64,000 nt of DNA from Bacilli bacterium (GCA_035361955.1 DAOSDC010000005.1:32987-96986), one strand, 5' to 3'; positions 15,073 to 62,131 are shown, counted from the first letter of the stretch. Translations and numbers: made by a program. The notes: a model not told the origin generated them from the letters alone.

Positions 15073-15402
15073 TTATATCTCGATATATACTTGTCCGGCT
15101 TCAACGGATGCTTTGAAAGTGCGCACCGATTGGGCGTCGCTATTGGGGACGAGAATTTTGGCCTTCGTGCTTGGTACGACCATTCCTGTCGTGACATCGA
15201 TTTTCAGGCCATGTTCCTTACACTGAATGATGCCGCCCTCAAGAACGCCGGGTGATAGCGGGGCTCCTTTATGCGGACACTTATCGTTGATGGCGTACAC
15301 TTTTTCGCCCACCAGTGCGATAAGAATCGGGCGCTCGTTGACCAAAACGCGCATTTTTCCTTTTTCTTTCAAGGCGCTCAAGGAACAGACTTTATGTTTC
15401 AT
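15073..15402 (-). CDS. Rieske [2Fe-2S] domain protein (NirD-like small ferredoxin)
   Basis: 109 aa with CPHKGAPLS...CKEHGLKIDVTTG, i.e. the CxH...CxxH Rieske ligand pattern. Confidence 0.7.
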   Translation of the reverse strand: MKHKVCSLSALKEKGKMRVLVNERPILIALVGEKVYAINDKCPHKGAPLSPGVLEGGIIQCKEHGLKIDVTTGMVVPSTKAKILVPNSDAQSVRTFKASVEAGQVYIEI

Positions 15403-15456: not shown

Positions 15457-16638
15457 TTACTCGTCGCCGTATTTATCGAAATAGCCCTGGATATAAATCA
15501 CCGGTGTGCCTTTGTCGCCGCTGCCAGATACCAAATCACACAAGCTGCCAACAAGATCGGTAATGCGACGAGGCGTTGTTCCAAGCGCCTCATTGGCCGT
15601 CACCTCGCGATTAGCGTTTTCTTTGACATATCGTTTCATGGCCTTGCTGGCTTCGCTTGCGGACATATGGGCGAATTTCGTGTCCGATAAATACTTAAAT
15701 TTCAATTCATAGGGAACGCCAGATAGCCCTTTGGTGTAAAACGGGGCGACGACGGGGTCAGCCAGCTCCCAAATATGGCCGACGGGATCTTTGAAGGCGC
15801 CATCGCCATAAACGAGCACTTCGATGCGCTTGCCGTATTTGTCAAATAGTCGTTGTTGAATCCCGTCTACGAATGGTTGTCCGTTTCGCGGAAATAGTTT
15901 CAACACATTGTCGCTGGCAAAGTTTGACCCGAGCACGCCATAGGTTTCATTATATCCGCTTCCGTTAAGCGGTTGCGTCAATAAATCATCTAATCCTAAG
16001 ACGATTCGCGCACCCTTTTGTTTTAAGCGGCGTTTGGTCTTAAACCTTGAATGAATATCGGCAGCGATAACCGTATCGGTGTATTCGAGCACGGCTTCAG
16101 GACGATTCGAAAAGATGATTTCAACATTGTCGGCCACGTGATGGTAAATGTTTGGATAATCAATGCCGGTAAATGGATGCGTGAATGGCACATTTAATAG
16201 GTTTCTTAGTTCGTCTTCCTTGAATACGTCAACTAAAGGATTGATGTGATGCTGTTCAAGCAAATCGGCATCAAACAGTGCATTGCCAACTTCGTCTTGG
16301 GGATAAGAAAGCACGACGATAACGCGTTTTGCAGCTTGACTAATCGCTTTGAGAATACCCAAAAAACGATTGCGGCTCATAATCGGAAAAACGACGCCGA
16401 GCACTTCGCCACCGGTTTTGGTTTTGATGTCCTGACTAAGGGTGGCGCTTGTAGCGTAATTACCCTGGCTACGAGCCAGCACCGATTCGGTGATGCCGAT
16501 AATGCCGCCGTCTTTGGGAGAAAAACCTTCTTCGACGATGGCTTTATCTAATGAATCGATGACAATGTTGGCTAAATCGTCGCCTTGCTTGATGACAGGT
16601 AACCGCAATCCACGGGCGCAAACTCCAAAATGACGCAT
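15457..16638 (-). CDS. CofE-like F420-0:gamma-glutamyl ligase family protein (start revised to MRHFGV, 394 aa)
   Basis: LPVIKQGDDLANIVID...DGGIIGITESVLARSQG matches the PF01996 GDDL / KIVSKAEGR-type N-terminal pattern. An AAGGAG RBS lies 9 nt upstream of the internal ATG. The 5' extension in the ORF track has no support. Confidence 0.5.
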   Translation of the reverse strand: MRHFGVCARGLRLPVIKQGDDLANIVIDSLDKAIVEEGFSPKDGGIIGITESVLARSQGNYATSATLSQDIKTKTGGEVLGVVFPIMSRNRFLGILKAISQAAKRVIVVLSYPQDEVGNALFDADLLEQHHINPLVDVFKEDELRNLLNVPFTHPFTGIDYPNIYHHVADNVEIIFSNRPEAVLEYTDTVIAADIHSRFKTKRRLKQKGARIVLGLDDLLTQPLNGSGYNETYGVLGSNFASDNVLKLFPRNGQPFVDGIQQRLFDKYGKRIEVLVYGDGAFKDPVGHIWELADPVVAPFYTKGLSGVPYELKFKYLSDTKFAHMSASEASKAMKRYVKENANREVTANEALGTTPRRITDLVGSLCDLVSGSGDKGTPVIYIQGYFDKYGDE

Positions 16639-16791
16639 GGTATTTCTCCTTGTTTGATACAATTCCATAACCATTATAAAGAAACTTGACCATCGGAAAA
16701 GCGGATTCAAAAAACTTTCCGCTGAAAAGCGCTTTCTCTCACTTATAATGTATATGGACATACGAACCCACACCATCATAAGGAGTCACCT

Positions 16792-17874
16792 ATGCGCATT
16801 GAAGCTGACGTAAAACTCGATTTTTCTGATGTGTTGATTCGACCGAAACGGTCGGAACTCAAAAGTCGTAAAGACGTTGACTTAAACCGAAAGTTCAAAT
16901 TCAAGTACGCCAAATTCGAATGGACGGGTATCCCCATTATGGCCTCGAACATGGATGGCGTTGGGACGATTGAAATGGCGCTAGCGCTACAAGAATACGG
17001 CATGTTCACAACGCTAGTGAAATGCTATGAAGTCGAAGATTTCGAACCATATATCGATCGTTTGAATCCCGATCGTTTTGCGATTAGCACGGGCACGAGC
17101 GACCATGACTTCCATCGCCTTACCACCATTATCAAACAATATCCACAAATTAAATTCATTTGCATCGACGTCGCCAATGGCTATTCCGAACATTTCGGCA
17201 GTTACGTCTCGAAGATTCGAAAAGAATTTCCGAATCACGCGATTATCGCCGGCAACGTCGTCACCGGCGACATGGCCCAAGAGTTAATATTGCGCGGTGC
17301 CGACATCATCAAAATCGGAATTGGGCCCGGCAGCGTATGCACGACCAGACTTCAAACTGGCGTTGGTTATCCACAGCTTTCCGCTGTCATCGAATGCGCC
17401 GATGCCGCTCATGGCTTAGGCGCCCACATTATTAGCGACGGGGGCTGCGCCACGCCCGGAGATATTGCCAAGGCGCTGGGAGCAGGTGCCGATTTCGTGA
17501 TGCTTGGAGGCATGTTCGCAGGACACGAAGAAGGCAAGGGCGATATTTTTGAAGAACACGTCATTTCTGATCTGGTCGATCCGAATACGGGTAAACAAAT
17601 CGTTGAAGTTCGGAAACTCGTGCAATTTTACGGCATGAGTTCGGAAACGGCGATGAAGAAAAAATTCAATGAAGTTTATGATTATCGGACGGCTGAAGGT
17701 GGCACCGTATATGTTCCCTACAAAGGGCGTGTCGATAAAACGATTAAAGACATTCTCGGTGGCTTGCGCTCGACTTGTACTTATGTGGGTGCCCCAACGT
17801 TAAAACAATTATCAAGATGCACGACGTTTGTGATTGTCCATCGTATCTCTAACGACGTATTTATTAAGCGCTGA
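16792..17874 (+). CDS. guaC: GMP reductase
   Basis: N-terminus [45 protein letters not shown] is near-identical in pattern to E. coli GuaC. AAGGAG RBS present. Confidence 0.9.
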
Positions 17875-18217
17875 CGCTTACTTTCATTTCGATGTTCGTC
17901 TTATCGCCGCTTAACCGCAAGCGGTAATTTCCATCATACAATGTCATGGTTTTCTTCATCGGTTCGATCGTGTCGATTAAGGTGATAATTTCATCTTTGT
18001 TAACGGCAAACAGCATGATTGCCCCATCGATTTTGGTAATGTCGATCGTGACGATTTTGCGGTCACTAACCTTAATACGACCAATCGTGACCATACCGGA
18101 AAATAGATGCGTCCTGACATGGATGACGCCTCGAAGTTTGTGGCACATAAACATCCACGCGCTTCGATAGTTGACGATGCTTTTGATTCTTTTTTCATCG
18201 ATGAAAAACTTACTCAT
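17864..18217 (-). CDS. Hypothetical protein (117 aa)
   Basis: ORF with no clear motif. Divergent from the kinase/EF-G pair. Confidence 0.35.
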
Positions 18218-18388
18218 GCTTTTATCTTACTCTGAACATGAAGTTTTTGAATAGGAATCAGTGCCAACCAATCTAATTAAGTAAGCGCTTTTACGATATG
18301 TAGCCAAGTATGGTAATAAACATTATTTTTTTACATATATCGTGATAAAATATAACAAATAATAAGAAAAGGAAGATTATATGATAAT

Positions 18389-18946
18389 ATGTCCCGCATT
18401 ATTGTAATCGCAGGCGATTTGGCATCCGGCAAATCGACCTTGGCGAAAAATCTCTCGGATCATTTCAAAATTCCTTATTTCACGAAGGAAGGCATCAAGG
18501 AACTTCTTAGTGAAGAGATTGAGTTCTCAGACCGGAGTGAGAACAAGAAACTCTCAAACTCCGCCCTCAAAATATTAATTCACATCCTTGACCGCGTCAC
18601 CAAAGTTCATGGCGATGTCATCCTCGAAGCCAACTTCCACTCGGAAGAATTAGAAAAAATCAAACGCGAATGCGAACTCCATCACACGGAAGTAACCTTA
18701 CTGTATTTAACCGGGGATATCGATGTGCTCTATGAGCGCTTCATGTACCGCGAATACTACCAAAACCGTCACCCGGTCCATCTGACCCATCCGCTCCAAG
18801 ATGTTGATGAATTTGAAAACTACGTCATGAAATGGCGCAACGAACCCGAAGTATTGCCGCGCCACTACATCGATGTTACCAATTGCGACCGCGAAGTCAT
18901 CTTCGCGAAAGCGCTCGAAACCTTAAAACAACTCGAACAAAAATAA
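18389..18946 (+). CDS. P-loop NTPase/kinase (AAA_33/CPT/TmrB-like small kinase)
   Basis: Walker A IVIAGDLASGKSTLAKNL. 185 aa. A paralog lies at 61568..62131 with a shared R-x-P-x-RHPVH block. The stop is 17 nt before the EF-G-like gene. Confidence 0.6.
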   Translation: MSRIIVIAGDLASGKSTLAKNLSDHFKIPYFTKEGIKELLSEEIEFSDRSENKKLSNSALKILIHILDRVTKVHGDVILEANFHSEELEKIKRECELHHTEVTLLYLTGDIDVLYERFMYREYYQNRHPVHLTHPLQDVDEFENYVMKWRNEPEVLPRHYIDVTNCDREVIFAKALETLKQLEQK

Positions 18947-18963
18947 TGAGAGGACATTGATAT

Positions 18964-21039
18964 ATGATTTACGAATCGGAAAAAATCCGCAATATTATTT
19001 TCTTGGGCCATCAAGGGTCCGGCAAGACGACGCTGATTGAATCGCTTTATAGCCTAGCGTTTAAAACTCCTAAAGGAGCGATCGAACGAAAGAACACAAT
19101 CAGCGATTTTACCGTCGAAGAAAAAAACCGCCTCAGTTCTTGCAACATGGCAATCGTTCCCATCGAATATAACGGCTATAAACTCAATCTCATCGACGCC
19201 CCCGGTAACGACAGTTTTGTGTACGAAATCATCGGCGTGCTCGACATGATCAAAGGCGCGGTGCTTGTCATCGATGCCCAAAAAGGACTTGAGGTCGGCA
19301 CCGTCAAACATTATAACTTCCTGCGTAAACACGGCGTCCCCACCTTCATATTTGTTAATAAGCTCGACAAAGAGTCGATCAAATACGAAGAGCTGTTAGA
19401 AAACATTAAAGCAAAACTCGGCAAACAAGCAATATCGTTTGTATATCCCATCGGTCACAAAGAGAACTTTGATGGCTTCATCGACATCATTTCATTAAAA
19501 GCCCGCCGCCACAATGGCGTCGAATGTGTCGAAGAGCAAATCCATGACGACAAGAAGGAAAAAGTCATGGAACTCCACAATGTCATCGCCGAACAAGTCG
19601 CCGTCACCGATGAAGCGTTACTAGAAAAGTTCTTCTCGGGTGAAACACTGTCCAAAGAAGAAATTCATCAGGGATTACACACCGCGGTGTTATCGGGTGA
19701 TTTAACTCCCATTCTTGTTGGATCATCACTTAAAGACATTGGTCTTGATACGATGCTTGATATGATGATTGATTACCTGCCCAACCCCAACGAGTTAAAA
19801 CCATATGTGGTCAAAGCTAACGATGGTAGCGAAATCGTGCGTCACACGATTAGTAGCGACCCCTTCTCGGCATACGTATTCAAAACGATGCTTGACCAAT
19901 ACAAAGGCACGACCAACATCATCAAGGTCATCTCCGGAACGATTAGTTTGGGCGATGAAATCTATTGTCCCAACACCCAAGCAACGTTTAAAGTATCACA
20001 GATGTTCTACCTTAGCGGTAGCAAACAAACGCCAATTGAGAAAGTATACGCCGGCGACATCGTTGGATTAGCCAAACTTGAAGGCGTGACCACCGGTCAT
20101 ACGCTTTGCGATAAGGCGAAACCAATCACTTACCCAAAAGCCAAATATCCAACACCGGTTTATTACCGCGCCGTCAGCCCGAAATCGAGTAAAGACGAAG
20201 AAAAACTCGGTTCCTCGCTCTTTAAGATGCAAATCGAAGATCCGATTCTTGAAGTTAAGCGCAACACCGAAACCAAGCAACTGCTCATCGGCGGCTTAAG
20301 CAATTCGCACCTTAACTACGTGTTAGAAAAAATCAATAACATGTACGGTATCCAGGTTGATGTCGCTCCTCCAAAGATCAATTACCGCGAAACGATTCGC
20401 AAAGAAGCGCAAGCGCCTGGTCGCTATGTCAAACAATCGGGTGGCAGCGGCTTCTACGGTGTCGTCGAAATGAAATTCTTACCAAGCGGTTCCGACAAAA
20501 ATGAATTCACCGAAGAAATATTCGGTGGTTCGGTGCCTAAAAACTATATTCCCGCGGTTGAAAAAGGATTCTTTGAATCGACCAACCAAGGCTTACTCGC
20601 CGGTTTCCCGGTGCTTGGCGTCAAGGGCGTGCTGTTAGATGGAAAATACCATCCCGTCGACAGTAATGAACTCGCCTTTAAAATGGCGGGCATGATTGCC
20701 TTCAAAGAAGCTTACATGAAATGCTCGCCGACGATTCTCGAACCGATCATGAAAATAACGATCAACATCAACAATGAATTCACCGGCAACATCATGAACG
20801 ATCTCAATCAACGTCGCGCACGCATCATCAGCATGGATGAAAAAGGTAATAATATCCAAGAAATCGTCGCTCTCGTTCCCGAAACCGAAATTCTCGATTA
20901 CGTGACCAACCTCCACGTCATCTCACAGGGTAGCGGCTTCTTTAACCGAGAGTTCGATTCTTATCAAGAAGTGCCCGCGCATTTGATTGATGGCATTATC
21001 CGCGATAATTCGCTCCTTAAAAACGCTGATAACAAATAG
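18964..21039 (+). CDS. Divergent EF-G family translational GTPase paralog with switch-II His replaced by Asn
   Basis: 691 aa. G1 GHQGSGKTT, G3 DAPGNDSF (canonical DTPGHVDF), G4 NKLD. C-terminal EF-G domain IV/V patterns (NDLNQRRARIIS..ALVPETEILDYVTNLHVISQGSG..F..YQEVP). Confidence 0.8.
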   Translation: MIYESEKIRNIIFLGHQGSGKTTLIESLYSLAFKTPKGAIERKNTISDFTVEEKNRLSSCNMAIVPIEYNGYKLNLIDAPGNDSFVYEIIGVLDMIKGAVLVIDAQKGLEVGTVKHYNFLRKHGVPTFIFVNKLDKESIKYEELLENIKAKLGKQAISFVYPIGHKENFDGFIDIISLKARRHNGVECVEEQIHDDKKEKVMELHNVIAEQVAVTDEALLEKFFSGETLSKEEIHQGLHTAVLSGDLTPILVGSSLKDIGLDTMLDMMIDYLPNPNELKPYVVKANDGSEIVRHTISSDPFSAYVFKTMLDQYKGTTNIIKVISGTISLGDEIYCPNTQATFKVSQMFYLSGSKQTPIEKVYAGDIVGLAKLEGVTTGHTLCDKAKPITYPKAKYPTPVYYRAVSPKSSKDEEKLGSSLFKMQIEDPILEVKRNTETKQLLIGGLSNSHLNYVLEKINNMYGIQVDVAPPKINYRETIRKEAQAPGRYVKQSGGSGFYGVVEMKFLPSGSDKNEFTEEIFGGSVPKNYIPAVEKGFFESTNQGLLAGFPVLGVKGVLLDGKYHPVDSNELAFKMAGMIAFKEAYMKCSPTILEPIMKITININNEFTGNIMNDLNQRRARIISMDEKGNNIQEIVALVPETEILDYVTNLHVISQGSGFFNREFDSYQEVPAHLIDGIIRDNSLLKNADNK

Positions 21040-21064
21040 TGATTCACCGCCATATTCATTAGTA

Positions 21065-21110
21065 AAAACCCCGTCGATTGGAAAACATCTCCTGACGGGG
21101 TTTTCTTTTT
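21065..21110 (+). terminator. Rho-independent terminator after the EF-G-like gene
   Basis: AAAACCCCGTC..(loop)..GACGGGGTTTT followed by CTTTTT. Confidence 0.6.
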
Positions 21111-21164
21111 GCTTTATCTCATCGCCCGCATTCATCGCGTCGTAGGGGTGGTATAATTTTAAGT

Positions 21165-21791
21165 ATGAAACCCGTTAATAAATTAAAACCGCTTTTAAAA
21201 AAACTCGAGGCGATGGAACGCCGTCGCGGCACGATGAACGAATATGTCGAAAACGAGTATATGGATGAAGAAGGTACGGCGACGATTAATGTCAATCTTA
21301 AAAACGCCGACAATCTTTTTTCACCCTATTCAAGCAAAAAGGTATTAAACCAGGATTTACTGCGCTACATCGATTCACAGGCTGATCCGCTACCACCCCA
21401 TTTACCACTGGTCATCAATTTTATCGTCGATGATGTCAGCAAGGTTGACCAAGAGTATATTCGTCGGGCGATTAAGCGCTATTATTGGCTGTCTTACAAA
21501 TCGATGACCAAAGAGTTGCGTCGCATTAAAATCACGTCGTTGGTGCTATTTGCGATTGGCATTGGTATTCTCGTGCTCTACGAGGTGCTGACGCGATTTA
21601 ACATCGATATATTAGCTAATCAGATTATCCTGATTGCTTCCTGGGTATTCATATGGGAAGCGGTCAGCCGCTTGTTCTTTAATCGTCGCGAAAAACAAAT
21701 CGAACGTATGAATGAAGGCCAAATGGCCGTCGCCAGCGTCAGATTCGAAACACGACCGCAGCAACATAAAAAGCCTAAAAAAGAAGCTTAA
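21165..21791 (+). CDS. Hypothetical membrane protein (2 TM helices)
   Basis: 208 aa. Central hydrophobic helices ITSLVLFAIGIGILVLY and IILIASWVFIW. Confidence 0.45.
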   Translation: MKPVNKLKPLLKKLEAMERRRGTMNEYVENEYMDEEGTATINVNLKNADNLFSPYSSKKVLNQDLLRYIDSQADPLPPHLPLVINFIVDDVSKVDQEYIRRAIKRYYWLSYKSMTKELRRIKITSLVLFAIGIGILVLYEVLTRFNIDILANQIILIASWVFIWEAVSRLFFNRREKQIERMNEGQMAVASVRFETRPQQHKKPKKEA

Positions 21792-25240: not shown

Positions 25241-26083
25241 TTAGCTGATGGTGTGTGTGCCAACGGTGTGGACAGCGGGGTTTCCTGTCGTGTAGGAGGC
25301 ATAGCTCCATTCGAGCGGATTGAATGAGTATAGATAGTCGGTTCCACCGATATTGAACGTATTAACGCTGGGACTGTGAATTGAAGGAATTCTTGTGAGG
25401 ACGGCATCCATGGTATTGCCACTGCCATTTGCAAACGTGGCGTTCCAAGCTGTGCCAGGATCAAACCCAATCGTTCCAAATGCATCAATCAAGACATCGC
25501 CAGAGCCATCATTTTTGAATAGACCAAACGCATCATCGCCGTTATGATTGGCGACATTGGTACCGGTCGATGTTCCTTGATCATAAGATCCTACCCATTT
25601 GCGGGCAACAGGAACGGCATTGACGGCAGCTAATAATCCGGTATCAAATGTGTCTGAAGCGACGTTATAAAACACGAACGTCTCTCCCGGCTCTAGCGTG
25701 CCTTCCATCGTCTTCATAATGTTAGAACTCGCTAAGTCGCGGCCATTTGAGAACAATTTAACCGTGTATTTTGTTAAGTCAATCGTTGTTGATGTCGGGT
25801 TGTAAAGTTCCAATACTTTATTCGTTCCCGGACCTTCAATATATTCCGAGAAAAATAAATCGGGTTCTCCTACCGGGATCGGTTCTGAAGAAGGAAGCTC
25901 GCTTGACGATGGTGTTGTTGAGGTTGGCGTAAGCGATGAGGTTACCTCTGATGAGGGGATTGCCGATGATGGTGCTTCAGATGTCGGCGTTGACGAAGAC
26001 GGGACGAGGGAACTGCTTTGGCATCCCGATAAAAATAGTGTTAACAATAATGCGCTACCGAATGTGATTTTCTTATTAAACAT
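25241..26083 (-). CDS. Lipoprotein with a lamin-tail (LTD) domain and an S/T/P-rich linker
   Basis: Lipobox LSGC. An S/T/P-rich low-complexity linker, then EPDLFFSEYIEGPGTNKVLELYNPTSTTIDLTKYTVK, which resembles the LTD motif (ISEI..G..N.fvELyN.t...vdLsgw.l). Confidence 0.55.
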   Translation of the reverse strand: MFNKKITFGSALLLTLFLSGCQSSSLVPSSSTPTSEAPSSAIPSSEVTSSLTPTSTTPSSSELPSSEPIPVGEPDLFFSEYIEGPGTNKVLELYNPTSTTIDLTKYTVKLFSNGRDLASSNIMKTMEGTLEPGETFVFYNVASDTFDTGLLAAVNAVPVARKWVGSYDQGTSTGTNVANHNGDDAFGLFKNDGSGDVLIDAFGTIGFDPGTAWNATFANGSGNTMDAVLTRIPSIHSPSVNTFNIGGTDYLYSFNPLEWSYASYTTGNPAVHTVGTHTIS

Positions 26084-60238: not shown

Positions 60239-61009
60239 TTACTTGGTTTCCTCTGATAAATTTGGATATACCTTGATGAAATGGTAGCAACTTGATAAAT
60301 GGTGATAGCCCCATTTTTCATACATGAAACGCGGGGTGTCGTTCATGTCAGTCACCAAATAAACAAATTTGGTTTGTTTTGTTTTTAAGAATGAAATAGC
60401 GTGTGCCATTAAAGCCGACCCGATGCCTTGATGCCGGTAAGGTTCTAGCACCGTAAAATCGTCAATTTTGGCGCATTGATCCGACCAAGTGACGTTGATC
60501 GATCCCACAATATGACCATCCAAAATCGCATAAAAATAACGATAATCTGTTTGCTTCATTAAAACTTCCCATTGCCTGATTGCGTTATTCACCGAGAATT
60601 GTTCGCCATATTCGCGGTTTTCTAAATAAAGATAATGGCAAAATGATTCCTTGATTGAGGGCTCAATTATTTGAATGTCAAACGATTTAACTTTCGGGAT
60701 TTTGACATCATTAATCGGTGCCCAATAGTAACCGTTGACACTTGGCTTATAGTCTTTCAAAACATCTTCAAACCCAGTTGGTTTTTCTTCGAATCGAAAG
60801 TGGACATGTCCATATTTTTTATAGGCCGCTTCATAGTCGCCTAGTTCGTTTTGTGATATTTGATTAGTTTTATAAACATGAAGATAATTGTGGTAGTACT
60901 TATCGCGTTGCATCGAGTCAGAGGCGATATAACCATATCTTGTTGCTTCGATGCTAGAAAACATCGCCACATAGTGTTTCTCAAACGCAAGAATATCTTC
61001 ATAAGTCAT
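60239..61009 (-). CDS. GNAT acetyltransferase-domain protein (C-terminal GNAT with an N-terminal uncharacterised domain)
   Basis: ILDGHIVGSINVTW..DFTVLEPYRHQGIGSALMAHAISFLK is GNAT motif A. Confidence 0.6.
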   Translation of the reverse strand: MTYEDILAFEKHYVAMFSSIEATRYGYIASDSMQRDKYYHNYLHVYKTNQISQNELGDYEAAYKKYGHVHFRFEEKPTGFEDVLKDYKPSVNGYYWAPINDVKIPKVKSFDIQIIEPSIKESFCHYLYLENREYGEQFSVNNAIRQWEVLMKQTDYRYFYAILDGHIVGSINVTWSDQCAKIDDFTVLEPYRHQGIGSALMAHAISFLKTKQTKFVYLVTDMNDTPRFMYEKWGYHHLSSCYHFIKVYPNLSEETK

Positions 61010-61571
61010 TGTGTGGGATGCTCCAATCTAAATCCAAATAATGTTCCCTGTTAAGAACGTAATCGATCACGTCTTGTTTGACGCCAAGTTGATCAGTAAA
61101 CGCTTGATAGCGAATCCCATTTGAAACAAATCCGAGCGATTCATACACATGCCTCGCGCGTTTGTTGGCCAAATTGGTATCCAAAACGATTCGAACGATG
61201 TCCTTGTTATCAAATATAAACGAAATCAAACATTTAAGCGCTTGTCGTCCCAGTCCTTTGTTTTGATGGATTGCTTCGCATATCTTGATTCCAATTTCGG
61301 CTTCATGTTCGCGGTAATTGACATTCATCTCGCCGATGGGGTGTTTCGAAAACATGATGATGAACAAGTGATTGTGCCCACCGCTGGGCGTCTGCTGTTT
61401 TTCAAGTCGTTTTGCTAAATCGGCCTCTTCGATTTCAATTCCGTGAGGAAAGCCGGCGTGGGCCATTACCGCTCCATCGCGCCACCAGGCAACCAATGTC
61501 TTGGCATCGCTAGGAAGCGCGCTTCGAAGTACAATGTCCTGGAATTTAAGTGCTAAAATGTTTGGTTTCAT
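60999..61571 (-). CDS. GNAT-family N-acetyltransferase (RimL-type)
   Basis: QNKGLGRQALKCLISFIF..LDTNLANKRARHVYESLGF. Confidence 0.8.
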   Translation of the reverse strand: MKPNILALKFQDIVLRSALPSDAKTLVAWWRDGAVMAHAGFPHGIEIEEADLAKRLEKQQTPSGGHNHLFIIMFSKHPIGEMNVNYREHEAEIGIKICEAIHQNKGLGRQALKCLISFIFDNKDIVRIVLDTNLANKRARHVYESLGFVSNGIRYQAFTDQLGVKQDVIDYVLNREHYLDLDWSIPHNDL

Positions 61572-62131
61572 ATAGTTTGTTCGTCATTTGATAAAAATCT
61601 TTTTGTAATCGTTAATAAGTCGTGGTATTTGGTCTCGTTAAAGTCAGTTGTGTCGCATTTAACGACTGTTCCAAAACAATCATCTGAGCGATAGCTTGCC
61701 ATGGAAGCGGTGAATGTTTCATATGACATTAACTCAATCGATTTGTGAACGGGGTGTCGCGATGGTTGTCGCGTTTTGTAACGCTCATAAATGACATAGG
61801 GATTTCCTTCAATGAATAAAGTCAACACGTTTTCGAGTGAAATTGGCAGTATTTCGCGAAGCTCAATGAGTTCCGGTTGTTTGAAATTGCTTTCGATGAT
61901 AACGTCAATACCCGCTTGGAGCAGTTTTTCTATCATCATTTTCATGATTTTGAAGGTGGCTTGGGAAAGTTTGAGGTTTTCCGCTCGATTCGAGTAACCG
62001 ATGGTGTCACCCAATATTTCTTTGAACGAATCTTTATTCAAACAAACCAGTTTCAAGTCGTTGCTAAGTCGACTGGAAATCGTCGTCTTCATCGTCGCTA
62101 GAAAGCCGGTAATAATGATTAATTTGGCCAT
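61568..62131 (-). CDS. Paralog of the 18389..18946 P-loop kinase, with a degenerate Walker A
   Basis: LIIITGFLATMKTT: the second Gly of GxxxxGK[ST] is replaced by Met. Shares a C-terminal RQPSRHPVH block with the other copy (QNRHPVHLTHP). Confidence 0.55.
   Translation of the reverse strand: MAKLIIITGFLATMKTTISSRLSNDLKLVCLNKDSFKEILGDTIGYSNRAENLKLSQATFKIMKMMIEKLLQAGIDVIIESNFKQPELIELREILPISLENVLTLFIEGNPYVIYERYKTRQPSRHPVHKSIELMSYETFTASMASYRSDDCFGTVVKCDTTDFNETKYHDLLTITKRFLSNDEQTI

Follow-up and report, generated by a model that had tools for sequence, protein, structure and literature searches.

An EFG II paralog of elongation factor G with Asn at the catalytic His position and a putative kinase as operon partner in one lineage of uncultured Bacilli

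Paralogs of elongation factor G belonging to the EFG II subfamily (fusA2 or EF-G2 type) are widespread, and the three that have been characterised comprise an active GTPase and translocase, a hydrolysis-free translocase and a stress-specific ribosome binder. The subfamily, described by Margus et al. in 2011 (PMC3150367), has the five domains of EF-G, the G1, G3 (DxPG), G4 and G5 motifs, a set of characteristic type I residues and a location outside the str operon, and it relaxes the G2 consensus of translational GTPases (trGTPases), RGITI, to xxxSx, with Ser for the Mg-coordinating Thr and a Clostridia variant reading RxxSI. Its structural prototype, Thermus thermophilus EF-G-2 (PDB 1WDT), is without the catalytic His of switch II (DAPGY) and is nonetheless a ribosome-dependent GTPase that is active in translocation. 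Bacteroides thetaiotaomicron EF-G2 (fusA2, BT2167; PDB 7UVP/8DMF), which at 718 aa carries additional sequence in domain IV, also lacks the His (DCPGS) and reportedly carries out translocation with no hydrolysis of GTP; carbon limitation reportedly induces its gene, which gut colonisation is reported to require. In the EFG II-type EF-G2 of Mycobacterium smegmatis (PDB 9K0Z/9K10) the His is replaced by Tyr98 (DTPGY), the residues of the P-loop and switch I that contact the sarcin-ricin loop are changed and G4 is altered, and the protein binds the ribosome but has neither recycling nor GTPase activity. Two further kinds of system are relevant here, namely the ribosomal protection proteins Tet(M), Tet(O) and Tet(Q), which are EF-G-derived translational GTPases working at the same ribosomal site and which keep DTPGH (‘idtpgh’ in Tet(M)), and the pairs eEF2K-eEF2 and PrkC-EF-G, in which a kinase is tied to the translocase in starvation or stationary phase.

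Here, we describe a locus in a 64-kb stretch of Bacilli DNA (64,000 nucleotides, analysed as a whole and called the window below), in which an EFG II protein lies directly downstream of a gene for a putative kinase. The family and its loss of the His are known; only the kinase operon partner of one Bacilli lineage is new. The features of the locus, all on the plus strand, are as follows.

18343..18351, +, putative extended -10 promoter, TGaTAAAAT, for the two-gene operon (promoter role predicted from the sequence)
18389..18946, +, P-loop kinase-like protein, 185 aa (open reading frame with Walker A GDLASGKST)
18413..18436, +, Walker A / P-loop of the kinase, residues 9-16, GDLASGKS
18947..18963, +, intergenic spacer of 17 nt with GAGAGGA, the ribosome-binding site of the paralog
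18964..21039, +, EFG II-subfamily elongation factor G paralog, 691 aa (five EF-G domains, NF009381, six type I positions)
19006..19029, +, G1 / P-loop of the paralog, residues 15-22, GHQGSGKT (alignments)
19129..19143, +, G2 / switch I of the paralog, residues 56-60, RLSSC replacing RGITI (alignment to 2xex)
19195..19209, +, G3 / switch II of the paralog, residues 78-82, DAPGN (Asn82 codon at 19207-19209)
19357..19368, +, G4 of the paralog, residues 132-135, NKLD, the guanine specificity motif
20431..20460, +, domain IV loop I, residues 490-499, KQSGGSGFYG (aligns with RQSGGRGQYG of S. aureus EF-G)
20644..20670, +, domain IV loop II, residues 561-569, KYHPVDSNE (aligns with SYHDVDSSE of S. aureus EF-G)
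21061..21113, +, intrinsic terminator, stem CCCCGUC...GACGGGG, then UUUUCUUUUU

The paralog has the full EF-G architecture that had been claimed for it, with GTP_EFTU, EF-G_D2, EFG_III, EFG_IV and EFG_C all above the Pfam cutoffs and with G1 (GHQGSGKTT) and G4 (NKLD) intact; GSSLK is also present beside GHQGSGKT, DAPG and NKLD. Its P-loop is without the Ile and Asp of the canonical AHIDAGKT, and within its clade G15, H16, G20, K21 and T22 are 100% conserved, as are Ser59 of switch I and the K and D of G4 (N 97%). The claim that Asn replaces the catalytic His agrees with the HMMER alignment of switch II to S. aureus EF-G (2xex), in which ‘nlidapgndsf’ lies on ‘niidtpghvdf’ with Asn82 at the position of the His; next to it, Asp83 shows 100% conservation within the clade. 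The canonical set for ribosome-activated hydrolysis is lost as a whole and not in the His alone, the alignments showing the P-loop Asp and both Ile of the ‘hydrophobic gate’ to be replaced. A sequencing error or a pseudogene was considered and ruled out, full-length proteins with DxPGN being found in 120 of the 120 closest homologs (60-98% identity) and in all 28 related loci. Domain IV is the most conserved domain of the paralog (76%): loop I, which in canonical EF-G is the tip reaching the decoding centre, is 97-100% conserved within the clade, and loop II includes the conserved His of YHxVDS, its K, H, V, D, S and N being 100% conserved. As the Bacilli clade keeps the Asn, the motifs for nucleotide binding and the tips of domain IV without variation, the paralog would be a selected factor that binds nucleotide and engages the A site, and this pattern of sequence conservation shows it to be under purifying selection.

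On sequence grounds, the paralog fits into the EFG II subfamily as an ordinary member. It passed the NCBIfam model NF009381 (PRK12740.1-5, an ‘elongation factor G’ subfamily) with 768.7 bits against a cutoff of 583, residues 3-682 matching profile positions 4-685 of 692; automated annotation already places it in this curated subfamily. The comparison with family models that had been proposed as a check gave failures for all of the more familiar assignments, with 560.5 bits against a cutoff of 659.4 for the canonical EF-G equivalog TIGR00484, 488.4 against 890 for the EF-G2 equivalog NF009377, 525.2 against 1000 for the Bacteroides-type EF-G2 model NF058620 (where the best stretch covers residues 2-506 only), 281 against 775 for the Tet ribosomal protection model NF012153, and 134-192 against cutoffs of 900-1425 for the models specific to Tet(M/W/O/S), Tet(Q) and Otr(A).

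The diagnostic residues point the same way. At the six type I positions, taken from Table 1 of Margus et al. 2011 with the 1WDT sequence confirmed as 100% identical, the paralog has all six EFG II residues, G15, L24, S59, T308, G352 and K371 corresponding to G16, L25, S61, T291, G333 and K/R352 of 1WDT, and 113-120 of the 120 clade members keep these residues; at the same sites P0249 and P0315, the canonical references, have A, L or T, T, V or I, A and G. Agreement at the type II positions (D216, V250, L264, K471, K472, E513 and G603) is partial, being exact for D, K472 and E and conservative for V and L (I and M, respectively), with clade-wide mismatches at K471 (V489) and G603 (S623). The RLSSC that lies on RGITI fits the EFG II relaxation of switch I. 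The paralog also shares the five domains, the G motifs and the location outside the str operon, having a gene of the IMPDH/GMP-reductase family and the kinase gene upstream. It differs from 1WDT, to which it is 34% identical, in having Asn, invariant in its clade, where the prototype has Tyr, and its Bacilli / Mollicutes-like lineage is absent from the sub-subgroups of 2011.

Loss of the His is unsurprising because the paralog is an ordinary EFG II member. The sequence-only reading had taken all known paralogs to keep DTPGH, which does not hold for the EF-G2 types, whose motifs read DAPGY, DTPGY and DCPGS as given above. It does not hold for the nearest relatives either: among representatives at 50% identity (150 in the set, 147 with a readable motif) the His is absent in 143, the residue at its position being Y in 62, F in 29, D in 11, S in 10, N in 7, L in 7 and, after rarer residues, H in 4. 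A His-less EF-G paralog is therefore to be expected, is no anomaly and leaves the current picture unchanged. One thing that sets this clade apart, among the homologs compared, is that the Asn is fixed at the catalytic His position within an uncultured Bacilli / ‘Tenericutes-like’ lineage.

The reading that we favour, and hold to be probable as a whole, is of an EFG II paralog serving as an alternative factor and encoded in a conserved operon with a kinase. By analogy with its characterised relatives, the probable role of the paralog in starvation or stress is that of an alternative translocase or of a factor that binds the ribosome. Its most likely functional analogue is B. theta EF-G2; the paralog is ~34% identical to the Bacteroides-type representative P0331, and no kinase partner has been described for the B. 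theta protein. It would bind GTP and the ribosomal A site in the manner of EF-G, its GTP hydrolysis would be slow, altered or absent, and it may offer a low-cost alternative when cells are starved or stressed, a canonical EF-G encoded elsewhere in the genome working alongside it. The characterised EFG II proteins disagree among themselves, so that analogy leaves the mechanism unfixed. Compared with M. smegmatis EF-G2, the paralog has Asn rather than Tyr and an intact NKLD.

The layout of the sequence signals shows that kinase and paralog form an operon and are predicted to be co-transcribed. The earlier proposal that the kinase gene ends 17 nt upstream of the paralog, in one operon, is borne out by the reading frames, the gap, the putative promoter and the terminator. 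The spacer leaves no room for a terminator, and the gap is similarly short, at 4-27 nt, in ortholog loci. A block reading TGnTA(g/a)AAT, which precedes the start codon (ATG) of the kinase gene by ~40 nt, is shared by the window and four related loci (L001, L002, L004 and L025); conservation does not extend farther upstream. Downstream of the paralog, the terminator RNA folds with -20.3 kcal/mol (z = -4.18; none of 200 shuffles folds as well), and was missed by a consensus scanner because of its long loop. With a leader riboswitch or T-box in mind, Rfam was searched and gave no match at E <= 1 across 17700-21300, and none at gathering score in the whole window. A cre-like palindrome upstream of the kinase gene, GTAAGCGCTTTTAC, was rejected, as it is not conserved in related loci and the cre consensus is unmatched in the window.

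The putative kinase has a P-loop fold of the NMP / gluconate / shikimate-kinase type, with a Walker A motif of the form GxxxxGK[ST] (G9, A12, G14 and K15 being invariant in an alignment of 40 sequences) and a parallel-sheet kinase core with a LID region. The structures nearest to it belong to small-molecule kinases or to proteins that are uncharacterised, one being the putative kinase Caur_3907 of Chloroflexus aurantiacus (PDB 2RHM), which is only 20-22% identical and, as a structural-genomics deposit, does not inform the substrate of the 185-aa protein. Sequence models place it no more closely: Pfam AAA_18 gave 28.9 bits, just under the gathering cutoff of 29.4, no NCBIfam model came near its cutoff, and neither Pkinase nor Alpha_kinase matched in Pfam at E <= 0.01. 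No specific sequence similarity or closest structural similarity to the antibiotic P-loop kinases (chloramphenicol phosphotransferase, TmrB/TmrD) was found. A second copy of the kinase gene in the window is unlinked to the paralog and adjoins two GNAT acetyltransferase genes.

The paralog was the ordinary EFG II protein that the sequence-only reading had set against its own proposal, but it was not the kinase-less one, since the pairing was found in all 11 ortholog loci, with at least six different flanking contexts and down to 55% identity for the kinase and 61% for the EF-G. The search for such pairs in other genomes that had been proposed as a check thus found them among orthologs and not across the family. 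Within the loci compared, kinase linkage is confined to one subclade of uncultured Bacilli: the kinase gene is absent next to 19 paralog loci of the sister clade, where an ECF S-component, PfkB, ABC permease, sugar transferase or Fic gene lies upstream, and the four distant kinase relatives are all stand-alone. As sister clades do without it, the kinase is not required for the core function of the paralog. The conserved operon nevertheless suggests that the two proteins may share a physiological role, and a kinase operon partner conserved in one subclade also separates this case from EFG II in general. No kinase is mentioned in Margus et al. 2011 (PMC3150367).

The earlier claim that no described system has this pairing still stands, as we found it described nowhere. 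We know of no earlier EFG II group in which an operon partner is conserved, and such a partner could offer an experimental handle on the function of EFG II factors.

Among the alternatives, it is possible, though we do not favour it, that the adjacency reflects only inherited synteny and co-expression, the kinase being a small-molecule enzyme (for a nucleoside, nucleotide or sugar acid) without a direct functional link to the paralog. The restriction of the pairing to a single monophyletic subclade, with unrelated genes upstream in the sister clade, fits this account, as do the stand-alone distant relatives, the unlinked second copy in the window and a fold of the small-molecule kinase type. 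Against it, survival of the pair through that many contexts and that much divergence, with gaps of 4-27 nt, is more than passive synteny usually keeps.

The favoured reading leaves the invariance of the Asn unaddressed, and this invariance, at a position that varies in the family at large, may be a sign of a specific and perhaps catalytic function. An account that makes Asn82 catalytically competent, with its amide acting as the Gln of Ras-like GTPases does and the factor remaining a real, if slower, ribosome-dependent GTPase, is doubtful in our judgement. All 120 homologs and every locus have the Asn, at a site that holds Y, F, D, S, L, A and others in the remaining EFG II, and the fully conserved Asp83 adjoins it. 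Precedents come from E. coli EF-G, where H92Q, with an amide side chain, remains able to hydrolyse GTP but releases Pi more slowly and H92A is deficient, and from T. thermophilus EF-G-2, which is GTPase-active without the His. Set against these are the loss of the P-loop Asp and of both gate Ile, which hold the catalytic residue in place at the sarcin-ricin loop, and a side chain one methylene shorter than that of Gln. The Asn-fixed lineage would offer a natural test case for the question whether hydrolysis can be supported by an amide in the catalytic position.

A regulatory pair, with the kinase phosphorylating the paralog, the ribosome or tRNA as a switch in the manner of eEF2K-eEF2 or PrkC-EF-G, we consider unlikely. 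The tight conserved operon would suit such an arrangement, and kinase control of EF-G and eEF2 has these two as its nearest precedents; in both, however, the enzyme belongs to another class (an alpha-kinase and a Hanks-type Ser/Thr kinase) and is not in an operon with its target, whereas the protein described here has an NMP / gluconate-kinase fold, no Pkinase or alpha-kinase signature, and closest structures that are small-molecule kinases or uncharacterised. The paralog has only six clade-specific fixed positions, of which one bears a hydroxyl. This is Ser508, in a two-residue insertion in a domain IV loop, and as a phospho-acceptor specific to the kinase-linked clade it was the sole candidate and too weak to carry a protein-kinase model.

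An extended form, to which we give an equally small chance, is a dedicated two-component translation-control module in which the Asn82-Asp83 pair would support hydrolysis through a Ras-Gln-like amide and the kinase would switch the mode of translation in starvation. That the kinase of this module acts on the factor, the ribosome or tRNA, or supplies the factor's nucleotide, is likewise improbable. Were it true, the module would correspond in bacteria to eEF2K-eEF2, but would be encoded in an operon and have an unrelated kinase fold.

A role in ribosome protection or antibiotic resistance, which the sequence-only reading had also raised, fared badly, and a resistance module made of an EF-G-like ribosomal protection protein and an antibiotic-modifying kinase is very unlikely. 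EF-G-like protection proteins exist, Tet(M) and Tet(O) are among the matches of the paralog, and the second kinase copy has the GNAT acetyltransferase genes beside it; the Tet scores, however, lie far below their cutoffs, the tips of domain IV are invariant and resemble those of EF-G, and the DAPGN and EF-G-type domain IV loops of the paralog set it apart from the Tet proteins. In addition, the clade tree looks vertical, the context is chromosomal with no flanking mobile elements in the window, and the paralog has neither PADLOC nor resistance-type matches.

It is scarcely credible that the paralog is the organism's sole EF-G, a His-less factor doing all translocation: no canonical EF-G gene (fusA) was found in the 64-kb window or in 42 related loci, and the lineage has small genomes (contigs of 1.2-1.3 Mb), but the sequence examined is a small fraction of any genome, so that absence there says little, the paralog lies outside the str-operon context, and single-EFG genomes always have EFG I, which occurs in 97% of bacteria (Margus et al., PMC3150367).

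Two minor observations concern neighbouring or possible defence functions. Membership of a defence system was considered and set aside, PADLOC giving the kinase a weak generic P-loop match (VakA, E 1.5e-5) and the paralog nothing. The Fic gene upstream of the paralog in two loci (L021 and L027) was considered as a second ‘modifier’; its product matches a stand-alone SoFic defence protein (E 7e-32), and its position there is probably incidental.

Both same-strand reading frames described in the sequence-only reading are present in the window, as follows.

18389..18946, + strand: kinase ORF, 185 aa (ORF reading)
18964..21039, + strand: EF-G paralog ORF, 691 aa (ORF reading)

The 17-nt spacer between them holds a GAGAGGA ribosome-binding site and is too short for a terminator, and a CCCCGUC...GACGGGG hairpin with a U-run lies shortly 3' of the paralog stop codon (-20.3 kcal/mol, z = -4.2; 0 of 200 shuffles fold equally well). 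About 40 nt 5' of the kinase ATG is an extended -10 element, TGnTA[g/a]AAT, the sole conserved block upstream of the kinase when five related loci are compared; no Rfam family matches the kinase leader. Taken together, the spacer, the conserved -10 element and the terminator hairpin support the operon proposed earlier and make a single bicistronic transcript very probable.

A neighbourhood search for the same pairing in other genomes, suggested earlier, gives a two-sided result: the pair recurs, but in one lineage only. At all 11 ortholog loci tested, an orthologous kinase (54% identity or more) immediately precedes the DxPGN paralog, separated from it by 4-27 nt, and the related genome loci carrying the pair besides the window are L001-L005, L010, L024, L025, L034/L035, L040 and L041. 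In a neighbour-joining tree, the paired loci form one monophyletic subclade, and the clade of their most recent common ancestor takes in 110 of the 148 sequences of the paralog clade, namely the uncultured Bacilli homologs with Asn at the catalytic-His position. The genes upstream of 19 paralog loci outside this subclade are unrelated, distant kinase relatives (34-45% identity) stand alone in 4 of 4 cases tested and, judged from these sequences, sister clades clearly have a working paralog that needs no such kinase. The pair itself occurs in six or more distinct flanking contexts, among them an IMPDH/GMP-reductase-family gene, a PDH complex with DUF2188 and arginase, a spermine-synthase-like gene with CarD, and MarR with YqeY. 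Because the pair outlasts repeated rearrangement of its surroundings, a shared function of kinase and paralog is suggested, and passive co-expression without direct coupling is a minority possibility, on the unlikely side.

The 691-aa protein contains the full Pfam series of EF-G domains (GTP_EFTU, EF-G_D2, EFG_III, EFG_IV and EFG_C), and S. aureus EF-G (PDB 2xex) aligns to its residues 4-682 in HMMER. In this alignment, 'nlidapgndsf' stands over 'niidtpghvdf', which confirms that an Asn, Asn82, takes the place of the catalytic His of switch II. The paralog has also lost the P-loop Asp and the two 'hydrophobic gate' isoleucines, with GHQGSGKT where the canonical P-loop has AHIDAGKT and RLSSC where the canonical switch I has RGITI; neither change figured in the sequence-only reading. 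Full length and DxPGN are shared by 120/120 of the closest homologs (60-98% identity) and 28/28 related genome loci, ruling out sequencing error as the source of the His-to-Asn change. Within the clade, the nucleotide-pocket motifs GHxxxGKT, DxPGND and NKxD are essentially invariant, the Asp of DxPGND as much so as the Asn before it, as are the domain IV tip loops KQSGGSGFYG and KYHxVDSNE, and no domain is better conserved than domain IV (mean identity of 76% to the window's protein). In canonical EF-G, these tip loops reach the decoding centre. The invariance of pocket motifs and loops points to a protein that would still bind guanine nucleotide and still put domain IV into the A site.

Among NCBIfam models, the paralog passes the subfamily NF009381 'elongation factor G' (768.7 bits against a cutoff of 583) and fails the canonical EF-G equivalog TIGR00484 (560.5 against 659.4), the Tet ribosomal-protection model (281 against 775) and the two EF-G2 models. 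On these cutoffs, it was rejected as a member of either curated EF-G2 equivalog, of the Tet proteins or of canonical EF-G. Bacterial EF-Gs have been divided into EFG I, spdEFG1, spdEFG2 and EFG II (Margus, Remm and Tenson 2011, PMC3150367), the last keeping G1, DxPG, NKxD and G5, with RGITI relaxed to xxxSx as its hallmark and a set of diagnostic positions. These were mapped on a T. thermophilus EF-G-2 reference 100% identical to PDB 1WDT. At the six type I positions, the paralog has the EFG II residue throughout (G, L, S, T, G, K). The same holds for 113-120 of 120 clade members, and EFG I residues stand there in canonical references. The seven type II positions, which are weaker, give three exact matches and two conservative changes; the remaining two depart from EFG II, with Val at K471 and Ser at G603. 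On these matches, we assign the paralog to EFG II with high confidence, and its mode of working appears to resemble that of the EFG II/EF-G2 family. The paralog's own Bacilli / Mollicutes-like sub-group is missing from the 2011 list (PMC3150367), and its identity is about 34% whether it is compared with the T. thermophilus prototype, a Bacteroides-type representative or canonical EF-G.

The earlier statement that known paralogs, EF-G2 included, keep DTPGH proved wrong. Where the paralog has DAPGN, T. thermophilus EF-G-2 (1wdt) has DAPGY, M. smegmatis EF-G2 (9k0z) DTPGY, with Tyr98 standing for His88 (2026 preprint), and the B. thetaiotaomicron EF-G2 structure 7uvp DCPGS. An exhaustive HMMER search over 1.84 billion cluster representatives, from which the 150 nearest were taken (31-56% identity), found 62 Tyr, 29 Phe, 11 Asp, 10 Ser, 7 Asn and 7 Leu at this position, with His in only four, two of them plainly canonical EF-Gs. 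Across these sequences, loss of the catalytic His is thus the rule in EFG II, and its absence here is a known family trait and no anomaly, although the 2011 survey (PMC3150367) never discusses this residue. Peculiar to the paralog clade is that Asn has become fixed, with an Asp just as invariant behind it; the undescribed elements are this strict Asn and the conserved operon with the kinase.

How the paralog uses GTP is not fixed by its sequence, since characterised relatives differ. T. thermophilus EF-G-2, likewise His-less, is active both as a ribosome-dependent GTPase and in translocation. B. thetaiotaomicron EF-G2, which is induced by carbon limitation and needed for gut colonisation, is cited as a paralog whose translocation does not involve GTP hydrolysis, and mycobacterial EF-G2 binds ribosomes but has neither GTPase nor recycling activity. 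We tentatively favour a paralog that would act under nutrient limitation, beside canonical EF-G, as an alternative translocase, slow or hydrolysis-sparing, or as a ribosome-binding factor. E. coli EF-G H92Q, with its amide side chain, still hydrolyses GTP, with Pi release 25-fold slower, whereas H92A is deficient, and by analogy Asn could keep some hydrolysis chemistry. That Asn82 is a working catalytic residue, as its strict invariance would favour, is compatible with the favoured explanation and in itself unlikely.

Six residues are fixed only in the kinase-linked clade. Ser508 and Gly509 (window 20485-20490) make up an 'SG' insertion of two residues within a loop of domain IV (...FLPSGSDKNEF...), which is present in 106-107 of 110 kinase-linked sequences and missing from almost all sister-clade ones. 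As Ser508 is the only clade-specific hydroxyl residue, the sequences lend little support to the paralog being the kinase's substrate. A regulatory kinase-target pair comparable to eEF2K-eEF2 or PrkC-EF-G is improbable, the kinase having a fold that speaks against it and no protein-kinase signatures. The ribosome-protection or resistance role raised earlier is more doubtful still, given the low Tet score, an EF-G-like domain IV and apparently vertical chromosomal inheritance. That the paralog is the organism's sole EF-G deserves almost no credence, being very unlikely on the Margus et al. survey (PMC3150367).

A second, diverged kinase copy in the window is not linked to the EF-G paralog; it resembles the 34-45% identity group, which is never EF-G-linked, and overlaps the start of the first of two GNAT genes by 4 nt.

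61568-62131, - strand: second kinase copy, 187 aa (32% identity, tblastn E 5e-25)
60999-61571, - strand: GNAT acetyltransferase gene
60239-61009, - strand: next GNAT acetyltransferase gene

Its Walker A is degenerate (GFLATMKT, the GK of GDLASGKST now MK), so that it may not bind ATP. At two loci of a sister subclade with DLPGN and G2 'RRGGSAQ', a Fic/DOC-family gene, a second nucleotide-transferring enzyme adjoining an EF-G paralog of the clade, lies directly 5' on the same strand.

L021:4948-5985, + strand: Fic/DOC-family gene, 15-nt gap (Pfam E 4e-15)
L027:4885-5976, + strand: Fic/DOC-family gene, 24-nt gap (Pfam E 7e-16)

This adjacency is probably incidental, because the protein matches the stand-alone SoFic defence protein (PADLOC, E 7e-32).

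Elsewhere in the window, the following features were recorded.

15073-15402, - strand: small Rieske [2Fe-2S] protein, adjoining the next gene
15457-16779, - strand: F420-0:gamma-glutamyl ligase match, 440 aa (E 1.5e-47)
17864-18217, - strand: 117-aa ORF flanking the operon
21165-21791, + strand: 208-aa ORF flanking the operon
25241-26083, - strand: 280-aa ORF with a lipoprotein-type signal (…LFLSGCQSS)

All 218 positions of the ligase profile are matched, and their spread over residues 57-432 implies large insertions in the predicted protein; its pairing with the Rieske gene, kept in the close relatives L002 and L004, is unusual for a small-genome Bacilli lineage. The two flanking ORFs have no Pfam, NCBIfam or PADLOC matches; the 208-aa gene has its own extended -10, TGGTATAAT, at about 21149-21157, and the 117-aa gene recurs upstream of the operon, at 29-38% identity, solely among the nearest relatives (L001, L002, L004 and L025). 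No Rfam family reaches gathering score on either strand of window 1-64000, so that tRNA and rRNA genes, riboswitches and T-boxes are all absent from it. In the 280-aa ORF, a long Ser/Thr/Pro-rich low-complexity linker follows the signal. Among public records, 7uvp/8dmf (B. thetaiotaomicron EF-G2) are deposited as 'Tetracycline resistance protein TetQ', an annotation problem, and the 'Methanomicrobia archaeon' label of one paralog and one kinase cluster (P0009, P0128) almost certainly reflects a mis-binned bacterial contig.
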